From Methylococcaceae bacterium (GTDB lineage Bacteria; Pseudomonadota; Gammaproteobacteria; Methylococcales; Methylococcaceae): a stretch of 64,000 bases of DNA. The notes beneath the pieces were generated by a model, which was not told where the DNA came from, did not search any database, and worked only from the letters and a program-made list of their open reading frames with translations. Location: assembly GCA_044351045.1 (NCBI GenBank), contig JBILGM010000001.1:7314-71313 (forward strand), given 5' to 3'. The translations under genes were made by a program, and so were the position numbers. This document shows, one piece after another, positions 16,488 to 45,095 of the stretch. Every line of letters begins with the position of its first letter. The first letter of the stretch is position 1.

Positions 16488-16520
16488 CGGCGTATTGCTC
16501 TGATGTACCTACTGGCAGTC

Positions 16521-16997
16521 AATAGCCCACACTAATGGCTTGCACCGTGGCCATTGCTTGAGATCCTTCACTCCCGATGGTCGTTCAGGATGACACCCAT
16601 TGTCGTGTCGTCCTGAGCTCATTGTGTCGTCCTGAGTGCAACGAAGGACCTCAAGCGACGGGCACCCAATAGCCCACAATGATGACCTGCACAGTGCCCA
16701 TCGCTTGGGATCCTTCAGCCGCTATCACGGCCTCAGGATGACACTGAGTCCGTAGCCAGCGATCCTTCACTCCCGCTGGTCGTTCAGGATGACATGCAAA
16801 AACACTGTCGTCCTGAGTGGAACGAAGGACCTCAAGCGACGGGCACCCAACAGCCCATAGCGATGGCCTGCACAGTGCCCATCGCTTGGGATCCTTCAGC
16901 CGCTATCACGGCTTCAGGATGACACTGAGTCCGTAGCCAGAGATCCTTCACTCCCGGTGGTCGTTCAGGGTGACACCCATTGTTGTGTCGTCCTGGT
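16521..16997 (-). repeat. Hairpin-module repeat array R1 (about 2.4 units, spacing 199 and 181 bp)
   Basis: The + strand carries reverse complements of modules M1 (GTGTCATCCTGAACGACC-NNN-GGGAGTGAAGGATCT) and M3 (GTGTCATCCTGAGGCCGTGATAGCGGCTGAAGGATC). Module M2 (GTGTCGTCCTGAGTGCAACGAAGGACCTCAAG) is in direct form. GATCCTTCAC recurs at 16562, 16761 and 16942. Confidence 0.9.
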
Positions 16998-19089: not shown

Positions 19090-19432
19090 GTGTCATCCTG
19101 AGCTTATTGTGTCGTCCTGAGTGCAGCGAAGGACCTCAAGCTACCGCCGCCACCCCATAGCCCATAGCGATGGCCTGTGCCGGGGCTATTGCTTGAGATC
19201 CCTCAGCCGTTATCACGGCCTCAGGATGACACTGAGTCCGTAGCCAGAGATCCTTCACTCCCGCTGGTCGTTCAGGATGACACCCATTGTTGTGTCGTCC
19301 TGAGCTCATTGTGTCGTCCTGAGTGCAACGAAGGACCTCAAGCGACCGGCACCCCATAGCCCACAATGATGGCCTGTGCCGGGGCTATTGCTTGAGATCC
19401 TTCAGCCGTTATCACGGCTTCAGGATGACACT
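19090..19432 (-). repeat. Hairpin-module repeat array R2 (same polarity as R1)
   Basis: Contains M2 in direct form (19108-19140, 19301-19343) and reverse complements of M3 and M1. It fills the divergent intergenic region between 17030-18937(-) and 19528-20355(+). Confidence 0.9.
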
Positions 19433-20389: not shown

Positions 20390-21157
20390 GTGTCGTCCTG
20401 AATGACCCACAACTACCGGGTGTCATCCTGAGGCCGTGATAACGGCTGAAGGATCTCAAGCCATGGGCACTGTGCGGGCCATGGTTGTGGGCTATGGGGT
20501 GCCGGTAGCGTGAGGTCCTTCGTTGCACTCAGGACGACACAGCGAGCTCAGGCCGACACAATGATTCATGTCATCCTGAACGACCACCGGGAGTGAAGGA
20601 TCTTAGGGTACGGACTCAGTGTCATCCTGAGGCCGTCATAGCGGCTGAAGGATCTCAAGCCATGGGCACTGTGCGGGCCATTGTTGTGGGCTATGGGGTG
20701 CCGGTCGCGTGAGGTCCTTCGTTGCACTCAGGACGACACAACGAGCTCAGGACGACACAATGATTCGTGTCATCCTAAACGACCGTCGGGAGTGAGGGAT
20801 CTCTGGCGACGGACTCAGTGTCATCCTGAGGCCGTGTTAACGGCTGAAAGATCCCAAGCCACGGGCACTGTGCGGGCCCTGGTTGTGGGCTATGGGGTGC
20901 CGGTCGCCTGAGGTCCTTCGTTGCACTCAGGACGACACAGCGAGCTCAGGCCGACACAATGATTCGTATCATCCTGAACGACCAGCGGGAGTGAAGGATC
21001 TCTGGCTACGGACTCAGTGTCATCCTGAAGCCGTGTTAACGGCTGAAAGATCCCAAGCCATGGGCACTGTGCGGGCCATGGTTGTGGGCTATTGTGTGCC
21101 GGTAGCCTGAGGTCCTTCGTTGCACTCAGGACGACACAACGAGCTCAGCACGACACG
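20390..21157 (+). repeat. Hairpin-module repeat array R3: four tandem 199-bp units
   Basis: GTGTCATCCTGA(G/A)GCCGT begins at 20420, 20619, 20818 and 21017, an exact 199-bp spacing. Each unit is M3, a core, reverse-M2, a spacer, then M1 (for example M3 20420-20460, reverse-M2 20512-20540, M1 20569-20603). Confidence 0.95.
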
Positions 21158-25389: not shown

Positions 25390-25892
25390 GCTTGAAACAG
25401 CACTGGAAGTGGCTGGCGATTGGTGCGCTGCTGCTCGCGGCGGGTTATGCCGGGTTTGACTTCCAGAATCGGCACAGTGAGGCCACCCTGCTGGCCCGTG
25501 CCCATCAGTATTGGGAGGCCCGCCGATTGAACGATTACCTGACCGCCTATGAGCTGGAAGCCGAAACCGCCAATGGCCAACTGGCGCCGGATGAAGTGGA
25601 GACGCGGCCGGAATGGGGTCAGCGCCTGTACAGCTACAAACTCGGGTCCGTGGATTATTACAATGGCCATGCGGAAATTGAATTGACGACCGAGTACCTT
25701 ATTCGTGAATTGTCCAAACCCGCGGGTGGGGGGACGGCTAAAGACTTGTGGACCTTCATCAAGGGCCAGTGGTATCACGGCGCGCCGGAAAAAGGCGGCG
25801 CCGGAATCCGCAAGCCGGGCTCTGCCCAACCCCTGCCACCTGCTAACCCGACTGAACCCGCCCCGGCGCCCGCGCCCGCGCCCGCGCAGTAA
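25386..25892 (+). CDS. Membrane-anchored hypothetical protein with Pro/Ala-rich tail
   Basis: 168 aa. The start overlaps the stop of the PPIase gene (ATGA). It has an N-terminal TM helix and the tail PPANPTEPAPAPAPAPAQ. Confidence 0.55.
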   Translation: MSLKQHWKWLAIGALLLAAGYAGFDFQNRHSEATLLARAHQYWEARRLNDYLTAYELEAETANGQLAPDEVETRPEWGQRLYSYKLGSVDYYNGHAEIELTTEYLIRELSKPAGGGTAKDLWTFIKGQWYHGAPEKGGAGIRKPGSAQPLPPANPTEPAPAPAPAPAQ

Positions 25893-25911
25893 GGGTGTGG
25901 GGGAGGGTTGG

Positions 25912-26325
25912 CGTTTTGTGCTGGTCGCTTGGGGTCCTTCGTTGCACTCAGGACGACACGGTGATGGGTGTCATCCTTCGCGGGGCTTAGGCCGACCGGG
26001 TGGGTCAGGGCTGCCAATGGGTGTCATCCTGAACGACCCGCGGGAGTGAAGGATCTCATGCTATGGCCCCCTGCAGGCCATGGTGGCGGGTTATTGGGTG
26101 CTGATAGCCTGAGGTCCTTCGTTGCACTCAGGACGACACGGTGATTCGTGTCATCCCTTGCGGGGCTTAGGCCGACCGGGTGGGTCAGGGCTGCCAATGG
26201 GTGTCATCCTGAACGACCCGCGGGAGTGAAGGATCTCAGGCTATGGCCCCCTGCAGGCCATGGTGGCGGGTTATTGGGTGCTGATAGCCTGAGGTCCTTC
26301 GTTGCACTCAGGACGACACGGTGAT
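25912..26325 (+). repeat. Hairpin-module repeat array R4: 180-bp tandem units (2 full copies plus a partial)
   Basis: GGTCCTTCGTTGCACTCAGGACGACAC (reverse-M2) begins at 25933, 26113 and 26293, an exact 180-bp spacing. M1 (GTGTCATCCTGAACGACCCGCGGGAGTGAAGGATCTC) occurs in each unit. Confidence 0.95.
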
Positions 26326-26394
26326 GGTCTAATCCGCCTGCGCGGTCACCGGGGCGAATCATAGGCAAAAGACATCAATCCGGCTGATTCACTC

Positions 26395-26688
26395 ATGCAA
26401 GACCGGCAATATGACGTTTACATGATGACCAACCAGAGCAATCGGGTGCTCTATACCGGCATCACCAATGATCTTGGTCGGCGCGTGTATGAGCACCAGC
26501 ATAAGCTCTGCAAGGGGTTCACGGCCAAATATAATGTTGAGAAGCTGGTGTTCTTTGAGGTCACTTCGGATGTTGAATCCGCCATTACCCGAGAGAAGCA
26601 AATCAAGGGCTGGGTGCGTGCAAAAAAGAATGCGCTGGTGGGATCGATGAATCCTGATTGGCGTGATTTGAGCGTCGATTTCATGTAG
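26395..26688 (+). CDS. Small stand-alone GIY-YIG nuclease family protein (COG2827/YhbQ-like)
   Basis: 97 aa. YDVYMMTNQSNRVLYTGITNDLGRRVYEH (GIY...YTG), followed by EKLVFFE ... AITREKQIKGW.R.KK. This is the classic single-domain GIY-YIG layout. Repeat arrays R4 and R5 lie immediately on either side. Confidence 0.85.
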   Translation: MQDRQYDVYMMTNQSNRVLYTGITNDLGRRVYEHQHKLCKGFTAKYNVEKLVFFEVTSDVESAITREKQIKGWVRAKKNALVGSMNPDWRDLSVDFM

Positions 26689-26699
26689 GCGAGTGGTAT

Positions 26700-26880
26700 T
26701 GGGCTTGGGGTTTTGTGCCGGTCGCTTGGGGTCCTTCGTTTCACTCAGGACGACACAGTGATTTGTGTCATTCTTCGCTGCACTCAGTACGATACGTTGG
26801 GTCAGTGCTGCTATTGGGTGTCATCCTGAACGACCTGCGGGAGTGAAGGATCTCAGGTTAGGGGCACCCAGCAGGCGGCT
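26700..26880 (+). repeat. Hairpin-module repeat copy R5 (single unit)
   Basis: It contains reverse-M2 (GGTCCTTCGTTTCACTCAGGACGACAC, 26729-26755), a degenerate copy, then M1 (GTGTCATCCTGAACGACCTGCGGGAGTGAAGGATCTC, 26817-26853). Confidence 0.9.
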
Positions 26881-26914
26881 GTGTTTGGGCGCTGGTTTTA
26901 CTGGAATAACGATA

Positions 26915-27724
26915 ATGGCGGCTTCGATGGGTGCTTTCAGGGGATTTTTGGCTGCTTACTGGGGGCCGCTGAAGCATCTGGTGGTTTACCGCGACTTGTT
27001 CCTTCGCTTGATCCGGCGCGACATCATCAGCCGAACCAGCGGGACGTTGCTGGGGGCGGCGTGGTTAATCATTCAGCCCGGTCTGCAGGTGCTGGCCTTC
27101 TGGTTTCTGCTGGATTTTGTCCTCAAGGTCCGGTCTCCCGGAAGGGTGGCTTTCCTCGATTACTTTCTGGTGGCCATGTTGCCGTGGCTGTTCATCAGCG
27201 ACACGCTGACGCGTTCTCTCGGTGTGCTGAGTGAGTTTAGTAGCCTCTATCAGCGCACTATCTTTCCTGTGGCTGTGTTGCCGCTGATCCCGTTGGGGAT
27301 GTCTTTGCTGGTCTATGGCCCGGTTTACGCGGTGGTGTGCGGTGTGCTGATCGGACCGGGGGCGGCGGCCCAGGGGGTTGCGGTTTTGGGACTGATGGCT
27401 CTGTGGCTGTTGCCCTGGGTCTATCTATTGGCCATCGTCGGTCTGTTTTTCAAGGAATCGCGTCAGTTGGTCCCCTTTCTGCTGACCATGGTGATGTATG
27501 TGACGCCTATCCTCTACCAGCCGGCGGCTTTGCCGGATTCGGTCCAGACGTTGTTGGCCTGGAACGTGGTAGCGGATGGGGTGGCGCTGATCGAGGGCTG
27601 GCTGTTTGATTCGCCGGTGACCCCGCGCAATGGTTGGCAGCCAGTGCTGCTGTGGCTGGTGACGATGCCGCTGTCCTGGTGGCTGTTCCGCCGCGCCGAG
27701 CCGCATTTGCGGGAGGCATTATGA
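26915..27724 (+). CDS. wzm: ABC-2 type polysaccharide export permease (Wzm/TagG-like)
   Basis: ORF 26765-27724. The upstream part lies in repeat R5, so the ATG at 26915 is preferred (MAASMGAFRGFLAAYWGPLKHLVVYRDLFLRLIRRDIISRTSGTLLGAAW, the typical Wzm opening). Six TM helices. Confidence 0.8.
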   Translation: MAASMGAFRGFLAAYWGPLKHLVVYRDLFLRLIRRDIISRTSGTLLGAAWLIIQPGLQVLAFWFLLDFVLKVRSPGRVAFLDYFLVAMLPWLFISDTLTRSLGVLSEFSSLYQRTIFPVAVLPLIPLGMSLLVYGPVYAVVCGVLIGPGAAAQGVAVLGLMALWLLPWVYLLAIVGLFFKESRQLVPFLLTMVMYVTPILYQPAALPDSVQTLLAWNVVADGVALIEGWLFDSPVTPRNGWQPVLLWLVTMPLSWWLFRRAEPHLREAL

Positions 27725-30355: not shown

Positions 30356-30424
30356 GGGTTGAAAGGGTGTTCTGCTCTGTTTGCTTTGAATACCGTTGTG
30401 CTTGGGGTTGCGGTTGGGGGCTTG

Positions 30425-30918
30425 GGGTCAGGCTTTGGTTTTTGTGCCAGTCGCCTGAGGTCCTTCGTTTCACTCAGGACGACACAGTGATTTGTGTCAT
30501 CCTGAAGCCGTGATAACGGCTGAAGGATCTTAGGACAGGGGCACTGAGCAGGTGGCTTGGGTCAGGGTTGGGGCTTTTGTGCTGGCCGCCTGAGGTCCTT
30601 CGTTTCACTCAGGACGGCAGGGTGATGGGTGTCATCCTGAAGCCGTGATAACGGCTGGGATCTTAGGACAGGGGCGCTGAGCAGGTGGCTTGCGGCCAGG
30701 GTGGGTGTTTGGTGCCGGTAGCCTGAGGTCCTTCGTTGCACTCAGGACGACACACAGATGGGTGTCATCCTGAAGCCGTGATAATGGCTGAAGGATCTTA
30801 GGACAGGGGCGCTGAGCAGGTGGCTTGCGGTCGGGCTTGGGTTTTGTGCCAGTCGCCTGAGGTCCTTCGTTGCGCTCAGGACGTCACAGGGGGTGATGAG
30901 TGAAACGAAGGACCTAAG
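30425..30918 (+). repeat. Hairpin-module repeat array R6: about 3.5 tandem units of roughly 134 bp
   Basis: GGTCCTTCGTT (reverse-M2) begins at 30459, 30594, 30727 and 30861. Each is followed by M3 (GTGTCATCCTGAAGCCGTGATAACGGCTGAAGGATCTTAGG). The array ends with a direct-form partial M2 (GAGTGAAACGAAGGACCTAAG, 30898-30918). Confidence 0.95.
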
Positions 30919-37364: not shown

Positions 37365-37595
37365 ATGCATACTATTCAGGCCTCTGAATTCAAGGCTCGC
37401 TGTCTGGCTTTGATGGATAGCGTTGCAAGTACAGGCGAAGTTTGGGTGGTCACGAAAAATGGGCGGCCGGTTGCGGAATTAAGGCCATACTCTGGTGGCC
37501 GGGTCGATTCGCCCTTTGGCATGCATCGATCGGTCCAGATTTTAGGGGATATCATCTCCCCTATCGAGGATGCTGAGTGGAAGGCTCTGGATTGA
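37365..37595 (+). CDS. Phd/YefM-type antitoxin
   Basis: 76 aa. MHTIQASEFKARCLALMDSVASTGEVWVVTKNGRPVAELRP is typical of the Phd/prevent-host-death family. A GAGG SD lies upstream, and the 3' end overlaps the PIN gene. Confidence 0.8.
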   Translation: MHTIQASEFKARCLALMDSVASTGEVWVVTKNGRPVAELRPYSGGRVDSPFGMHRSVQILGDIISPIEDAEWKALD

Positions 37596-37993
37596 TTCTG
37601 CTCGATACCCACAGTCTGATCTGGATGGATCAAGACAATCCACTGTTGGGCCCCTCGGCCCGCCGGCTCATTGAGGCGGCATGGCGGGAAGGTCTGGTCG
37701 CTGTGAGTGCCATCAGTTTTTGGGAATCAGCCATGCTGGTCGAACGGTCCAGGATCAGTTTGCCGGTTTCTGTTGAGACTTGGCGTACCGATCTGATTCA
37801 GTCAGGTGTCAAGGAGATTTCCCTGGACGGACGGATCATGCTCAGGTCTACCCAATTGCAGGGCTTGCATAGGGATCCAGCAGACCGGTTTATCGTTGCG
37901 ACGGCCTTGCAACACTCTGCCACGCTGATTACTGCGGATAGCAAGATTCTGAATTGGGATAATGAGTTTCCAAGGCAGGACGCCCGGATTTGA
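37577..37993 (+). CDS. vapC: PIN-domain toxin (VapC family); alternative TTG start at 37592
   Basis: ILLDTHSLIWMDQDN ... and C-terminal ADRFIVATALQHSATLITADSKI, with the conserved acidic residues of PIN domains. Confidence 0.8.
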   Translation: MEGSGLILLDTHSLIWMDQDNPLLGPSARRLIEAAWREGLVAVSAISFWESAMLVERSRISLPVSVETWRTDLIQSGVKEISLDGRIMLRSTQLQGLHRDPADRFIVATALQHSATLITADSKILNWDNEFPRQDARI

Positions 37994-43828: not shown

Positions 43829-43894
43829 GACGAATGGTTTATTCGTTTATGATTAGGTGTCTCTTGCCAAGCGAAAGGCCAGATCTACGCTGAG

Positions 43895-44249: not shown

Positions 44250-45095
44250 CTACATCCAGTCCTTCCCCTTTTTTCGCACCTGTTCGTAAAACGCATCCAT
44301 GACCTCGACGAAGGATTCGTCCTTGTCCCAGAACGGCGGAAAGTCGCCGCCTTTGCGAATGAGAATGCCGGATACGGCGGCGGGTGGTGGGGGTTCCACC
44401 CCGGCGGGGAGTTTGCGTTGCCCGCGCCAGAATGGCCGTGGGGAAATGCTCTCCGGCAAAGCTTTTTCCACGGGTCGGGTAAAGAACGAGTCGGCGGATT
44501 GGGGTTGGGGCCGGGCCTCGTCAAGGGCCGAGGCCAGCGCGGTGCCCAGCGGCGTGGCCCTGAGCCGCTGGATCAGTTCGGACCGCGAGAGGCCGCGCAG
44601 TTCAAACAGCAGGAACGGGTCCTGGTCCAGTCGTCCGGCCAGCAGCAGATAAAGCGCGGCGACGTGTTTGCAGGGATTTTCGTAGTCCGGACAGGAACAC
44701 CCGCTGGCGACCTCGGATTGGCTCGAGGGCAGCAGGTTGACTCCCAACTCCGCCAGCGGGCGCTCGATCTCATCCGGCATTTCGTTGAACAGTAACCGCG
44801 AGATATAACCAGCCCGGCTGCCGATCAGCGATAGTGCTTCGTCCCACGCTTCGTGCGGAATGGGCGTGAATTGCAGCCAGGTGTCATAGACGGGCACTTC
44901 GTGGATGCCATAGTAGGGATTGAGCTTGCCGCGTATGGTGGCTTCGACCCGGTTGCCGAGAATCTCCCAGCGACTGACTCGATGGCTCCCCAGATATTGC
45001 CGGCCACGCGCCAGTCGGCCGGCCTCGGTGAAAGATTCCAGCACCTCGAGAAAGCGCCGTCCCCAGCAGGTTTTGCTCATTTTGTGGGGGGCCAT
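44250..45095 (-). CDS. SWIM zinc-finger family protein
   Basis: CSCPDYENPCKHVAALYLLL is the SWIM CxCx(n)CxH signature, in a 281-aa protein. Confidence 0.8.
   Translation of the reverse strand: MAPHKMSKTCWGRRFLEVLESFTEAGRLARGRQYLGSHRVSRWEILGNRVEATIRGKLNPYYGIHEVPVYDTWLQFTPIPHEAWDEALSLIGSRAGYISRLLFNEMPDEIERPLAELGVNLLPSSQSEVASGCSCPDYENPCKHVAALYLLLAGRLDQDPFLLFELRGLSRSELIQRLRATPLGTALASALDEARPQPQSADSFFTRPVEKALPESISPRPFWRGQRKLPAGVEPPPPAAVSGILIRKGGDFPPFWDKDESFVEVMDAFYEQVRKKGKDWM

Follow-up and report, generated by a model that had tools for sequence, protein, structure and literature searches.

We analysed a 64,000-nucleotide (nt) stretch of contig JBILGM010000001.1 (assembly GCA_044351045.1, positions 7,314 to 71,313 of the forward strand; hereafter the window) from an uncultured relative of the Methylococcaceae, in which a small nuclease gene lies between arrays of hairpin repeats in a surface-polysaccharide cluster. 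The gene (open reading frame (ORF) 26395-26688, plus strand; 97 amino acids (aa)) is an ssnA-like, single-domain GIY-YIG nuclease gene, and we consider it likely that it encodes an Ssn-family nuclease whose cognate recognition elements are the hairpins that surround it and recur elsewhere in the cluster. The protein groups with the Ssn family, the hairpins are conserved in structure, gene and hairpins are associated whichever of the two a search starts from, and the presence of both is lineage-specific. The original prediction, made from the bare sequence, took the link between nuclease and repeats to be undescribed, but this pairing has already been published as the Ssn/SRM system (Chenal et al. 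2025, Nat Commun 16:2388, PMC11893778); the present locus adds a member with hairpins that fall outside the published pattern.

A nuclease gene of the Ssn family

SsnA of Neisseria meningitidis is a 94-aa single-domain GIY-YIG protein (CDD cd10448) that binds and cuts a flanking hairpin repeat, the NTS (CGTCATTCCCGCGMAVGCGGGAATCYRG). Binding and cutting both require single-stranded DNA (ssDNA), and the cut is made in one strand, a short way upstream of the repeat. Ssn homologues across bacteria are flanked by related hairpins, named SRMs, and enzymes have been characterised from Neisseria and Wolbachia. In Neisseria, clusters of NTS are found around the genes for surface structures, transformation with NTS-gene-NTS DNA is inefficient, and Ssn restricts incoming ssDNA. 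The authors likened NTS-ssnA-NTS to insertion sequences and to REP/RAYT, raised mobility as a hypothesis only, and stressed the use of these enzymes in biotechnology as sequence-specific ssDNA cutters (PMC11893778). Mobility of Ssn elements is not addressed in the later literature that cites this work.

A Pfam search identified GIY-YIG (PF01541) as the sole domain of the 97-aa protein (61 bits, residues 8-78). When the protein was used as a tblastn query against PLSDB (7.3 Gb), it found one place in each of two N. gonorrhoeae chromosomes, with 47% identity, E 2e-21 and 96% coverage. This place is a 94-aa ORF amid nine canonical NTS copies in alternating orientation, and because it is embedded in these copies we identified it as ssnA. 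In BLASTP against this gonococcal orthologue the window protein scored 93.6 bits (E 9e-32) and aligned without gaps over 93 of 94 residues. This lies within the published bounds for Ssn homology (E < 1e-10 over more than 75% of the Neisseria SsnA length; PMC11893778), and a single domain of 97 aa agrees with the size expected of the family (about 90-100 aa, below 150 aa). An alignment that included gonococcal SsnA and YhbQ showed Y20, R30, H34 and E67 to be invariant and Y9 to be nearly so, whereas the motifs GFT..YNV, REKQIKGW and NP.W.DL were common to the window protein and SsnA and were not found in YhbQ. By these sequence features we assign the protein to the Ssn clade and not to the YhbQ/UPF0213 clade. 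A sequence search of the PDB returned no solved Ssn structure, 1zg2 being the only match (E 0.075), and the protein matched no PADLOC model, no PHROG family and no phage record. The two 2.17-Mb gonococcal chromosomes (NZ_CP119140.1, our locus L081, and NZ_CP119142.1) are barely annotated and are listed in PLSDB as plasmids, a database error.

Compared with a homologue at 89% identity, the nuclease ORF differs at 52 nt, 37 of which are at third codon positions, and the codon changes comprise 29 synonymous and 12 non-synonymous ones. Because the differences are mostly of the third-position, synonymous kind, the gene is real, and purifying selection acts on it. The ORF is visibly poorer in G+C (GC) than its surroundings, as had been noted beforehand (0.49, against 0.58 for the window), but its GC at third codon positions (GC3, 0.64) is inside the window range of 0.67 +/- 0.07. 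The low overall value therefore stems from the amino-acid content of a conserved protein rich in K, N and Y, and not from recent import or foreign origin. Seven metagenome contigs that share the gene order encode an identical protein, all strain-level contigs carry one and the same ORF, and the best match in a collection of species-representative genomes has 71% identity. Comparisons of PBP2 assign the window to an uncultured gammaproteobacterium whose closest named relatives, at 60-63% identity, are Methylococcaceae.

The upstream neighbour, a 168-aa gene, ends at 25892; downstream, the permease gene wzm begins at 26915, with a gene for a Wzt-type ABC ATPase behind it. The non-repeat leader of the nuclease gene (26328-26394, plus strand) has only its last ~30 nt in common with the locus of the 89% homologue. 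A promoter and terminator scan found no sigma-70 consensus in this leader and no terminator-like T-runs around the gene.

Hairpin repeats and their association with the gene

The gene stands between two repeat arrays, as originally described. The upstream array (25918-26327, plus strand) consists of 2.3 repeats of a 180-nt unit and stops 68 nt short of the ATG, and the downstream array (~26695-26894, plus strand) is one diverged unit, at 74-90% identity, that begins 7-27 nt past the stop codon. Each upstream unit carries hairpin A on the minus strand, a degenerate GTGTCATCC element, and hairpin C on the plus strand. Hairpin A (GTCGTCCTGAGTGCAACGAAGGAC) was located at 25934-25957 and 26114-26137 (both on the minus strand, by pattern and by the fixed-geometry test described below), and the copy at 26294-26317 (minus strand) is the closest upstream of the nuclease gene, 77 nt before its ATG. 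Pattern and module scans placed hairpin C at 26023-26054 (GTCATCCTGAACGACCCGCGGGAGTGAAGGAT) and at 26203-26234, both on the plus strand. Downstream, a variant of hairpin A (GTCGTCCTGAGTGAAACGAAGGAC) occupies 26731-26754 on the minus strand, 42 nt past the stop codon, and the same scans found a further hairpin C at 26820-26851 on the plus strand.

The window holds three hairpin types: A (GTCGTCCTGAGTGCAACGAAGGAC, 24 nt, 14 copies), B (GTCATCCTGARGCCGTGATARCGGCTGAAGGAT, 33 nt, 7 copies) and C (GTCATCCTGAACGACCNNCGGGAGTGAAGGAT, 32 nt, 7 copies). They have a common frame, GTGTCRTCC-TGA...GA-AGGAY-CTC, with a 5-bp outer stem and the tail GAAGGAYCTC. A is always on the strand opposite B and C, with which it forms composite units of 133-199 nt. 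A strict hairpin pattern found 28 intact hairpins, all within 16.56-30.80 kb of the window, and one chance match in coding DNA. The 27-nt module A was found 16 times when up to 3 mismatches were allowed, and the 37-nt module C was found 8 times; 100 shuffles contained neither. The repeats matched no Rfam family, and a literature search with the hairpin sequence itself gave no relevant match.

The hairpins of the window's clade consist of a GTCRY leader, a 5-bp stem, a tandem G·A, 2 bp and a GNA triloop, with longer inserts in B and C. We examined this structure with a fixed-geometry test (GTC-5-GA-7-GA-5) in which the arms were left free and pairing was not presupposed. Among 110 near-gene instances, 50 were fully paired, compared with 6.3 for shuffled partners (maximum 16 in 1000). 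The instances comprise ten distinct outer stems, their inner pairs covary (GC/GC, AC/GT, GT/AC), and their loops read GAA, GCA, GTA or GGA. Hairpin A of the window matches the geometry exactly. Covariation supports the G·A/GNA hairpin structure.

To relate hairpins to genes we assembled the 80 closest homologous loci from named genomes, with protein identities of 47-71% and drawn from at least 15 phyla, including Firmicutes, Chloroflexota, Planctomycetota, Bacteroidota, Cyanobacteriota, Acidobacteriota and Patescibacteria. Inspection by eye revealed TGTCAYYCTGAG...CGAAGRRTC hairpins beside the gene in nearly all of 14 loci. A loose pattern (GTCRY plus any 5-bp stem) matched at 73 of the 80 loci and on both sides of the gene at 60, but it also produced many chance matches in coding DNA and was therefore replaced by a tight pattern. 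The latter gave 140 matches in the 62 kb that lie no more than 400 bp from the genes, where 3.5 were expected, as against 58 in 1032 kb of background, a 40-fold enrichment; 46 of the 80 loci were matched, and the matches peak less than 100 nt from the gene ends. The orientation of the nearest hairpin is not fixed in the window's clade (22 plus and 17 minus upstream, 19 plus and 20 minus downstream). Between homologues from distant phyla, protein identity reaches 65-75%.

The inverse test began from the repeat. A metagenome scan seeded on a relaxed A-type hairpin returned more than 120 stretches, of which 80 (377 kb) were fetched. An Ssn homologue was present in three of these, at 17, 66 and 166 nt from the seed hairpin, and 77 were without one, which is the pattern expected for one gene with many dispersed repeats. 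Exact hairpin A had no match in the metagenome collection, which lacks samples carrying the window's lineage. Together, the two directions of search bear out the link proposed from the bare sequence and support, at the level of genome comparison, a functional connection between the nuclease gene and the hairpins. The contigs that carry the homologues are in many cases shorter than 1-2 kb, and stretches of N interrupt several flanks (L001, L005, L105; numbers with L are our own for the loci compared). Hairpin arrays break short-read assemblies or leave scaffold gaps in them, so that the context of the gene is systematically under-sampled.

Four further arrays of the same family bring the number in the window to six, all of them intergenic. 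One, on the minus strand at 16511-16995 (A plus; B and C minus), lies between a 236-aa gene and a Wzy_C/TPR gene; a second, also on the minus strand (19090-19432), separates the latter from a PIG-L deacetylase gene. Downstream of the PIG-L gene is an array of 199-nt units (20420-21142, plus strand; A minus, B and C plus), and between a GNAT gene and a 438-aa gene there is an array of ~134-nt units (30416-30890, plus strand; A minus, B plus). The arrays bracket the O-antigen-ligase-like Wzy_C/TPR gene, the PIG-L deacetylase gene, the block from a 442-aa gene to the 168-aa gene, the nuclease gene itself, and wzm, wzt and the GNAT gene. The setting of the nuclease gene in the window is a surface-polysaccharide cluster.

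Array orientation tracks the neighbouring genes: among minus-strand genes (16.5-19.4 kb) A is on the plus strand and B and C are on the minus strand, and among plus-strand genes (20.4-31 kb) the reverse holds, B and C reading GTCAT... on the sense strand in six of six arrays. Leader-only partial copies (GTGTCGTCCTGAGCTCATT) stand directly 5' of a full hairpin A at 16607-16649, 19294-19336 and 20714-20756. Similar tandem leader half-copies are found on both flanks of a Planktothrix homologue (L082) and at a few other loci (7 of 200 hairpins). The unit spacer (26058-26090 and its equivalents) contains an additional short palindrome, ATGGCC...GGCCAT. Complementarity also exists between the hairpin 3' tail (GAAGGATCTCAGGCTAT) and the sequence that flanks the opposed hairpin A on its 5' side, and the elements are therefore ~45 nt long, longer than the hairpin proper. 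The repeats also create spurious 58-aa ORFs (25968-26144 and 26148-26324) containing ...GCHPERPAGVKDL..., and through them the reading frame of wzm runs back as far as a GTG at 26765 (26765-26914); the start at 26915 matches the gene calls on related contigs. A PIN-domain gene (37577-37990) and a gene for a SWIM zinc-finger protein (44253-45095) elsewhere in the window have no apparent connection to the repeats.

Function and origin of the locus

By analogy with the enzymes of Neisseria and Wolbachia (PMC11893778), the window nuclease would bind its hairpin in ssDNA only and cut that strand a few nt 5' of the hairpin and its leader. Cutting would take place whenever a hairpin is exposed as a single strand, such as on transforming DNA that enters the cell or on intermediates of replication and repair. 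Such cutting could affect how the bracketed envelope genes recombine and are replaced, as with NTS-gene-NTS in N. meningitidis, and might promote expansion and contraction of the arrays, their instability being a by-product. On this analogy, modulation of recombination or transformation at polysaccharide loci is a likely role.

Several observations weigh against an Ssn nuclease acting on these hairpins. The role in transformation is established for Neisseria only (PMC11893778), and identity to an enzyme of the characterised type is only 47%. The published SRM pattern (HGTCWYN(0-2)YYVSBRHN(0-5)WNVSBRGN(0-2)RNCYNB, sought within 500 bp on both sides of the gene) matched none of the repeats in the window, where its single match, at 43858, is at chance level, and it matched only once near the gene in the 80 closest loci. 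Finally, nearest-neighbour DNA folding scored hairpins A (z -0.46) and C (z +1.33) no better than shuffles, and B alone was clearly stable (z -3.5). Since the folding energy of A does not exceed that of shuffles, the structural case for A rests on covariation. A tandem G·A with a GNA triloop recalls the very stable d(GCGAAGC) mini-hairpin, and nearest-neighbour parameters probably under-credit both features; a mini-hairpin-like core of this kind may be the reason for the poor scores of A and C.

The failure of the SRM pattern in the window's clade is a real negative, because the same implementation detects every NTS in Neisseria as well as the SRMs of Rhizobium, Shinella and Sphingobium. A pattern for the NTS itself gave chance-level matches only, on the window and on the 80 closest loci. 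Hairpins that match the SRM pattern, such as CGTCATCCCAGGGCTTGACCCTGGGATCCAC, flank the alphaproteobacterial homologues (35-52% identity); those upstream of the gene are on the plus strand and those downstream are on the minus strand. In one of these loci (L227, a plasmid of Rhizobium sp. CIAT894) an IS4-family transposase gene (101-1246) lies directly upstream of the SRM-flanked homologue. The more general description in the Ssn paper, oriented hairpins of 20-50 nt with a conserved 5' leader, does apply on both sides of the window gene. Judged by the published pattern, the window's clade carries a different hairpin subclass, one that keeps the GTCRY leader and the stem-loop-TC layout and has another core.

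Comparison with relatives provides a history of the site. Among contigs with the identical protein, the nuclease gene is separated from the 168-aa gene by 323 bp in L084 (4985-5306), 503 bp in the window (25893-26394) and 683 bp in L085 (3248-3929); because these lengths differ by the 180-nt unit, array copy number is polymorphic between strains. The 168-aa neighbour is lineage-specific, and its homologues lead to relatives with the order PPIase, 166-aa gene, wzm, wzt, GNAT. Four of them (L095-98, 78% identity to the neighbour) have 480 bp before wzm with three A and two B hairpins in the gap, arrays at other intergenic sites, and no nuclease gene in 16.5 kb. Another at 78% (L099) has 370 bp before wzm, one intact hairpin with the others decayed, and no nuclease gene. 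At 58% (L100) the gap is 127 bp, and there are neither hairpins nor the nuclease gene in 15.9 kb; at 49% (L102-104) it is 265 bp, again with no hairpins and no nuclease gene. The syntenic relatives form a series, from arrays with the gene through arrays without it and decaying hairpins to a clean, empty site. In L102, ccdA/ccdB follow the same cluster, with no apparent connection to the repeats.

The 89% homologue (L106) occupies the same site, behind an array like that of L095, and its comparison with L095-98 shows that closely related lineages differ in whether this one site holds the gene. Gene-bearing and gene-less alleles align through the last A hairpin (...CTCAGGACGACAC) and diverge right after it. 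The conserved gene module includes ~30 nt ahead of the ATG and ~35 nt beyond the stop, and no target-site duplication is evident at the allele junction. The 74% homologue (L105, 6001-6306) is found in another context, beside AbiEii and EpsG genes, with the same three hairpin types, and its hairpin A stem shows the compensating change ATCCC/GGGAT.

This history bears on a further possibility, compatible with the Ssn interpretation although we hold it only tentatively: that the nuclease is the autonomous partner of a selfish element and spreads both itself and the hairpins, which would make the pair the GIY-YIG equivalent of an insertion sequence or of REP/RAYT, with cuts at hairpins followed by repair or recombination that copies the elements. 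Ssn and its hairpins would then be self-propagating, and hairpin-directed ssDNA breaks might seed, expand and delete arrays, move the gene and remodel surface-polysaccharide loci, a scenario to which we give about one chance in four. Hairpins on both sides of the gene in 60 of 80 homologues by the loose pattern, and the perfectly inverted flanking arrangement in Rhizobium, Shinella and Sphingobium, are what such an element might look like. Cross-phylum protein identities of 65-75% imply horizontal transfer of the gene together with its hairpin type. The presence or absence of the gene at one site (L106 against L095-98), with alleles that diverge exactly at that end of a hairpin which bears the leader, argues in the same direction, as do the different genomic context of the 74% homologue with its same three hairpin types, the decay or absence of hairpins where the gene is absent (L099, L100, L102), and array lengths that differ between strains in 180-nt steps. 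The same hypothesis was raised by the Ssn authors (PMC11893778).

Other features of the locus fit a selfish element poorly. The nearest hairpin has no fixed orientation and no target-site duplication was seen, while host-like GC3 and an ORF identical in all strain-level contigs give the gene the look of a long-term resident. L095-98 keep intact arrays with no gene in 16.5 kb, although a copy elsewhere in the genome is possible, and the 180-nt steps are explicable by ordinary slippage or recombination. The chemistry of the enzyme also stands against it: to our knowledge, GIY-YIG enzymes are hydrolytic, form no covalent intermediate and have no strand-transfer activity, and they therefore could not perform cut-and-paste on their own. 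An insertion sequence proper was rejected because nearest-hairpin orientation is not fixed, the allele junction shows no duplication and the protein has no transposase fold.

That the gene encodes a defence nuclease against phages or plasmids, with hairpins that mark self DNA or regulate expression, seems improbable. Some homologues do keep such company: one on a Planktothrix agardhii plasmid (L082, NZ_LR882964.1, 2498-2782) has an MmeI-type restriction-modification gene on one side and DISARM drmA on the other, the L105 homologue adjoins AbiEii and MazE/PIN genes, and Ssn acts as a restriction on incoming ssDNA in Neisseria (PMC11893778). The window gene, by contrast, is in a polysaccharide cluster and not in a defence island, its product matches no defence or phage model among those searched (PADLOC, PHROG, phage records), and its cut sites would be abundant in the host's own genome.

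Slightly less probable still is that the repeats are REP/BIME elements served by a Y1 (RAYT) transposase elsewhere, or hairpins that end or stabilise transcripts, with the nuclease as a bystander. Like BIMEs, they are intergenic, alternate in orientation, and have a regular 133-199-nt spacing; array orientation tracks the direction of the flanking genes, and a window of 64 kb leaves room for a RAYT gene elsewhere in the genome. A Pfam scan of ~45 window ORFs nevertheless found no transposase, integrase or Y1 domain, in agreement with what had been read from the sequence (~10 further ORFs had no Pfam match). Hairpins of this design flank the Ssn homologues of at least 15 phyla, loci sought through the hairpin yield Ssn genes and not transposases right beside it, and the repeats have neither terminator-like T-runs nor an Rfam family.

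We regard as most improbable of all a housekeeping, YhbQ/UPF0213-type DNA-damage nuclease that lies beside unrelated intergenic repeats by chance: despite the same Pfam domain, a similar size, an alignment to E. coli YhbQ (34% identity over 77 aa) and the naming of some homologues as 'Predicted endonuclease containing a URI domain', the protein scores 94 bits over its full length without gaps against SsnA and 35 bits against YhbQ (E 0.075 for PDB 1zg2), and the 40-fold association of gene and hairpins spans phyla. The gene is also missing from the syntenic site in relatives whose neighbour gene is 78%, 58% and 49% identical (L095-L104), the repeat-free ones among them included, which refutes a YhbQ/UPF0213 identity conserved in synteny, as does the 35-bit score. 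A GIY-YIG homing endonuclease of the I-TevI type was also rejected: the group I intron endonuclease model TIGR01453 (NCBIfam) scores 17 bits, below its cut-off of 56, and the protein lacks a DNA-binding domain, is set in neither an intron nor an intein, and has no relatives among phages.

Significance and comparison with known systems

An Ssn-family nuclease with the hairpins as its cognate elements, the reading that we prefer, adds an uncultured relative of the methanotrophic Methylococcaceae to the hosts of the family. It also reveals a widespread Ssn protein subclade paired with a structurally distinct hairpin, built on a tandem G·A and a GNA triloop, that the published SRM pattern does not detect. 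Because that pattern misses the G·A type, genome censuses based on it undercount the system, and the G·A/GNA mini-hairpin class may be the most widespread form of the element, with at least 15 phyla represented. The presence/absence series at one site and the 180-nt array steps offer material for asking whether Ssn elements are mobile, and each newly found pair of enzyme and hairpin might serve biotechnology as a tool for cutting ssDNA at specific sequences. The partnership was published only in 2025 and was independently rediscovered here from raw sequence.

Homing endonucleases of the I-TevI type share the catalytic domain with the window protein, whose substrate, by homology, would be ssDNA and not double-stranded DNA. 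The YhbQ/UPF0213 proteins (E. coli b3155; B. halodurans BH0048, PDB 1zg2) belong to the same superfamily and are likewise single-domain proteins of ~100 aa, but they are without the GFT..YNV and NP.W.DL motifs, and the window gene is not conserved in synteny. We know of no hairpin repeats that flank YhbQ/UPF0213 genes. The REP/RAYT system is closer in layout, with a gene flanked by short dispersed hairpins that its enzyme recognises as ssDNA (PMC11893778, citing Nunvar 2010 and Ton-Hoang 2012), and as with REP/BIME and RAYT the window hairpins are dispersed in many intergenic copies, often in alternating arrays. RAYT, however, is an HUH tyrosine enzyme (Y1, IS200/IS605-like) that acts through a covalent intermediate, whereas the hydrolytic GIY-YIG nuclease is unrelated to it in fold and chemistry.

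The plasmid-borne homologues of Rhizobium, Shinella and Sphingobium are of the same family as the window protein (35-52% identity) and likewise have a GTCAY leader followed by a stem-loop. Their hairpins stand 20-50 nt from each gene end as a strict inverted pair, whereas those of the window's clade have no fixed orientation and a G·A-type core. SsnA and its NTS offer the closest comparison, although the NTS has a perfect 8-bp stem (TTCCCGCG/CGCGGGAA) and a 3-4-nt loop in place of the 5-bp stem, tandem G·A, 2 bp and GNA triloop of the window hairpins. The window also differs in combining three hairpin sizes into composite units of 133-199 nt, and in a host that is not Neisseria but an uncultured relative of the Methylococcaceae. 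In other respects the two systems agree: both have a single-domain GIY-YIG protein of 94-97 aa, 47% identical and alignable without gaps, encoded inside arrays of oriented hairpins that alternate in orientation and open with a conserved GTCAT/GTCGT leader, and in both a single gene is accompanied by many dispersed repeats that cluster around envelope and surface genes.

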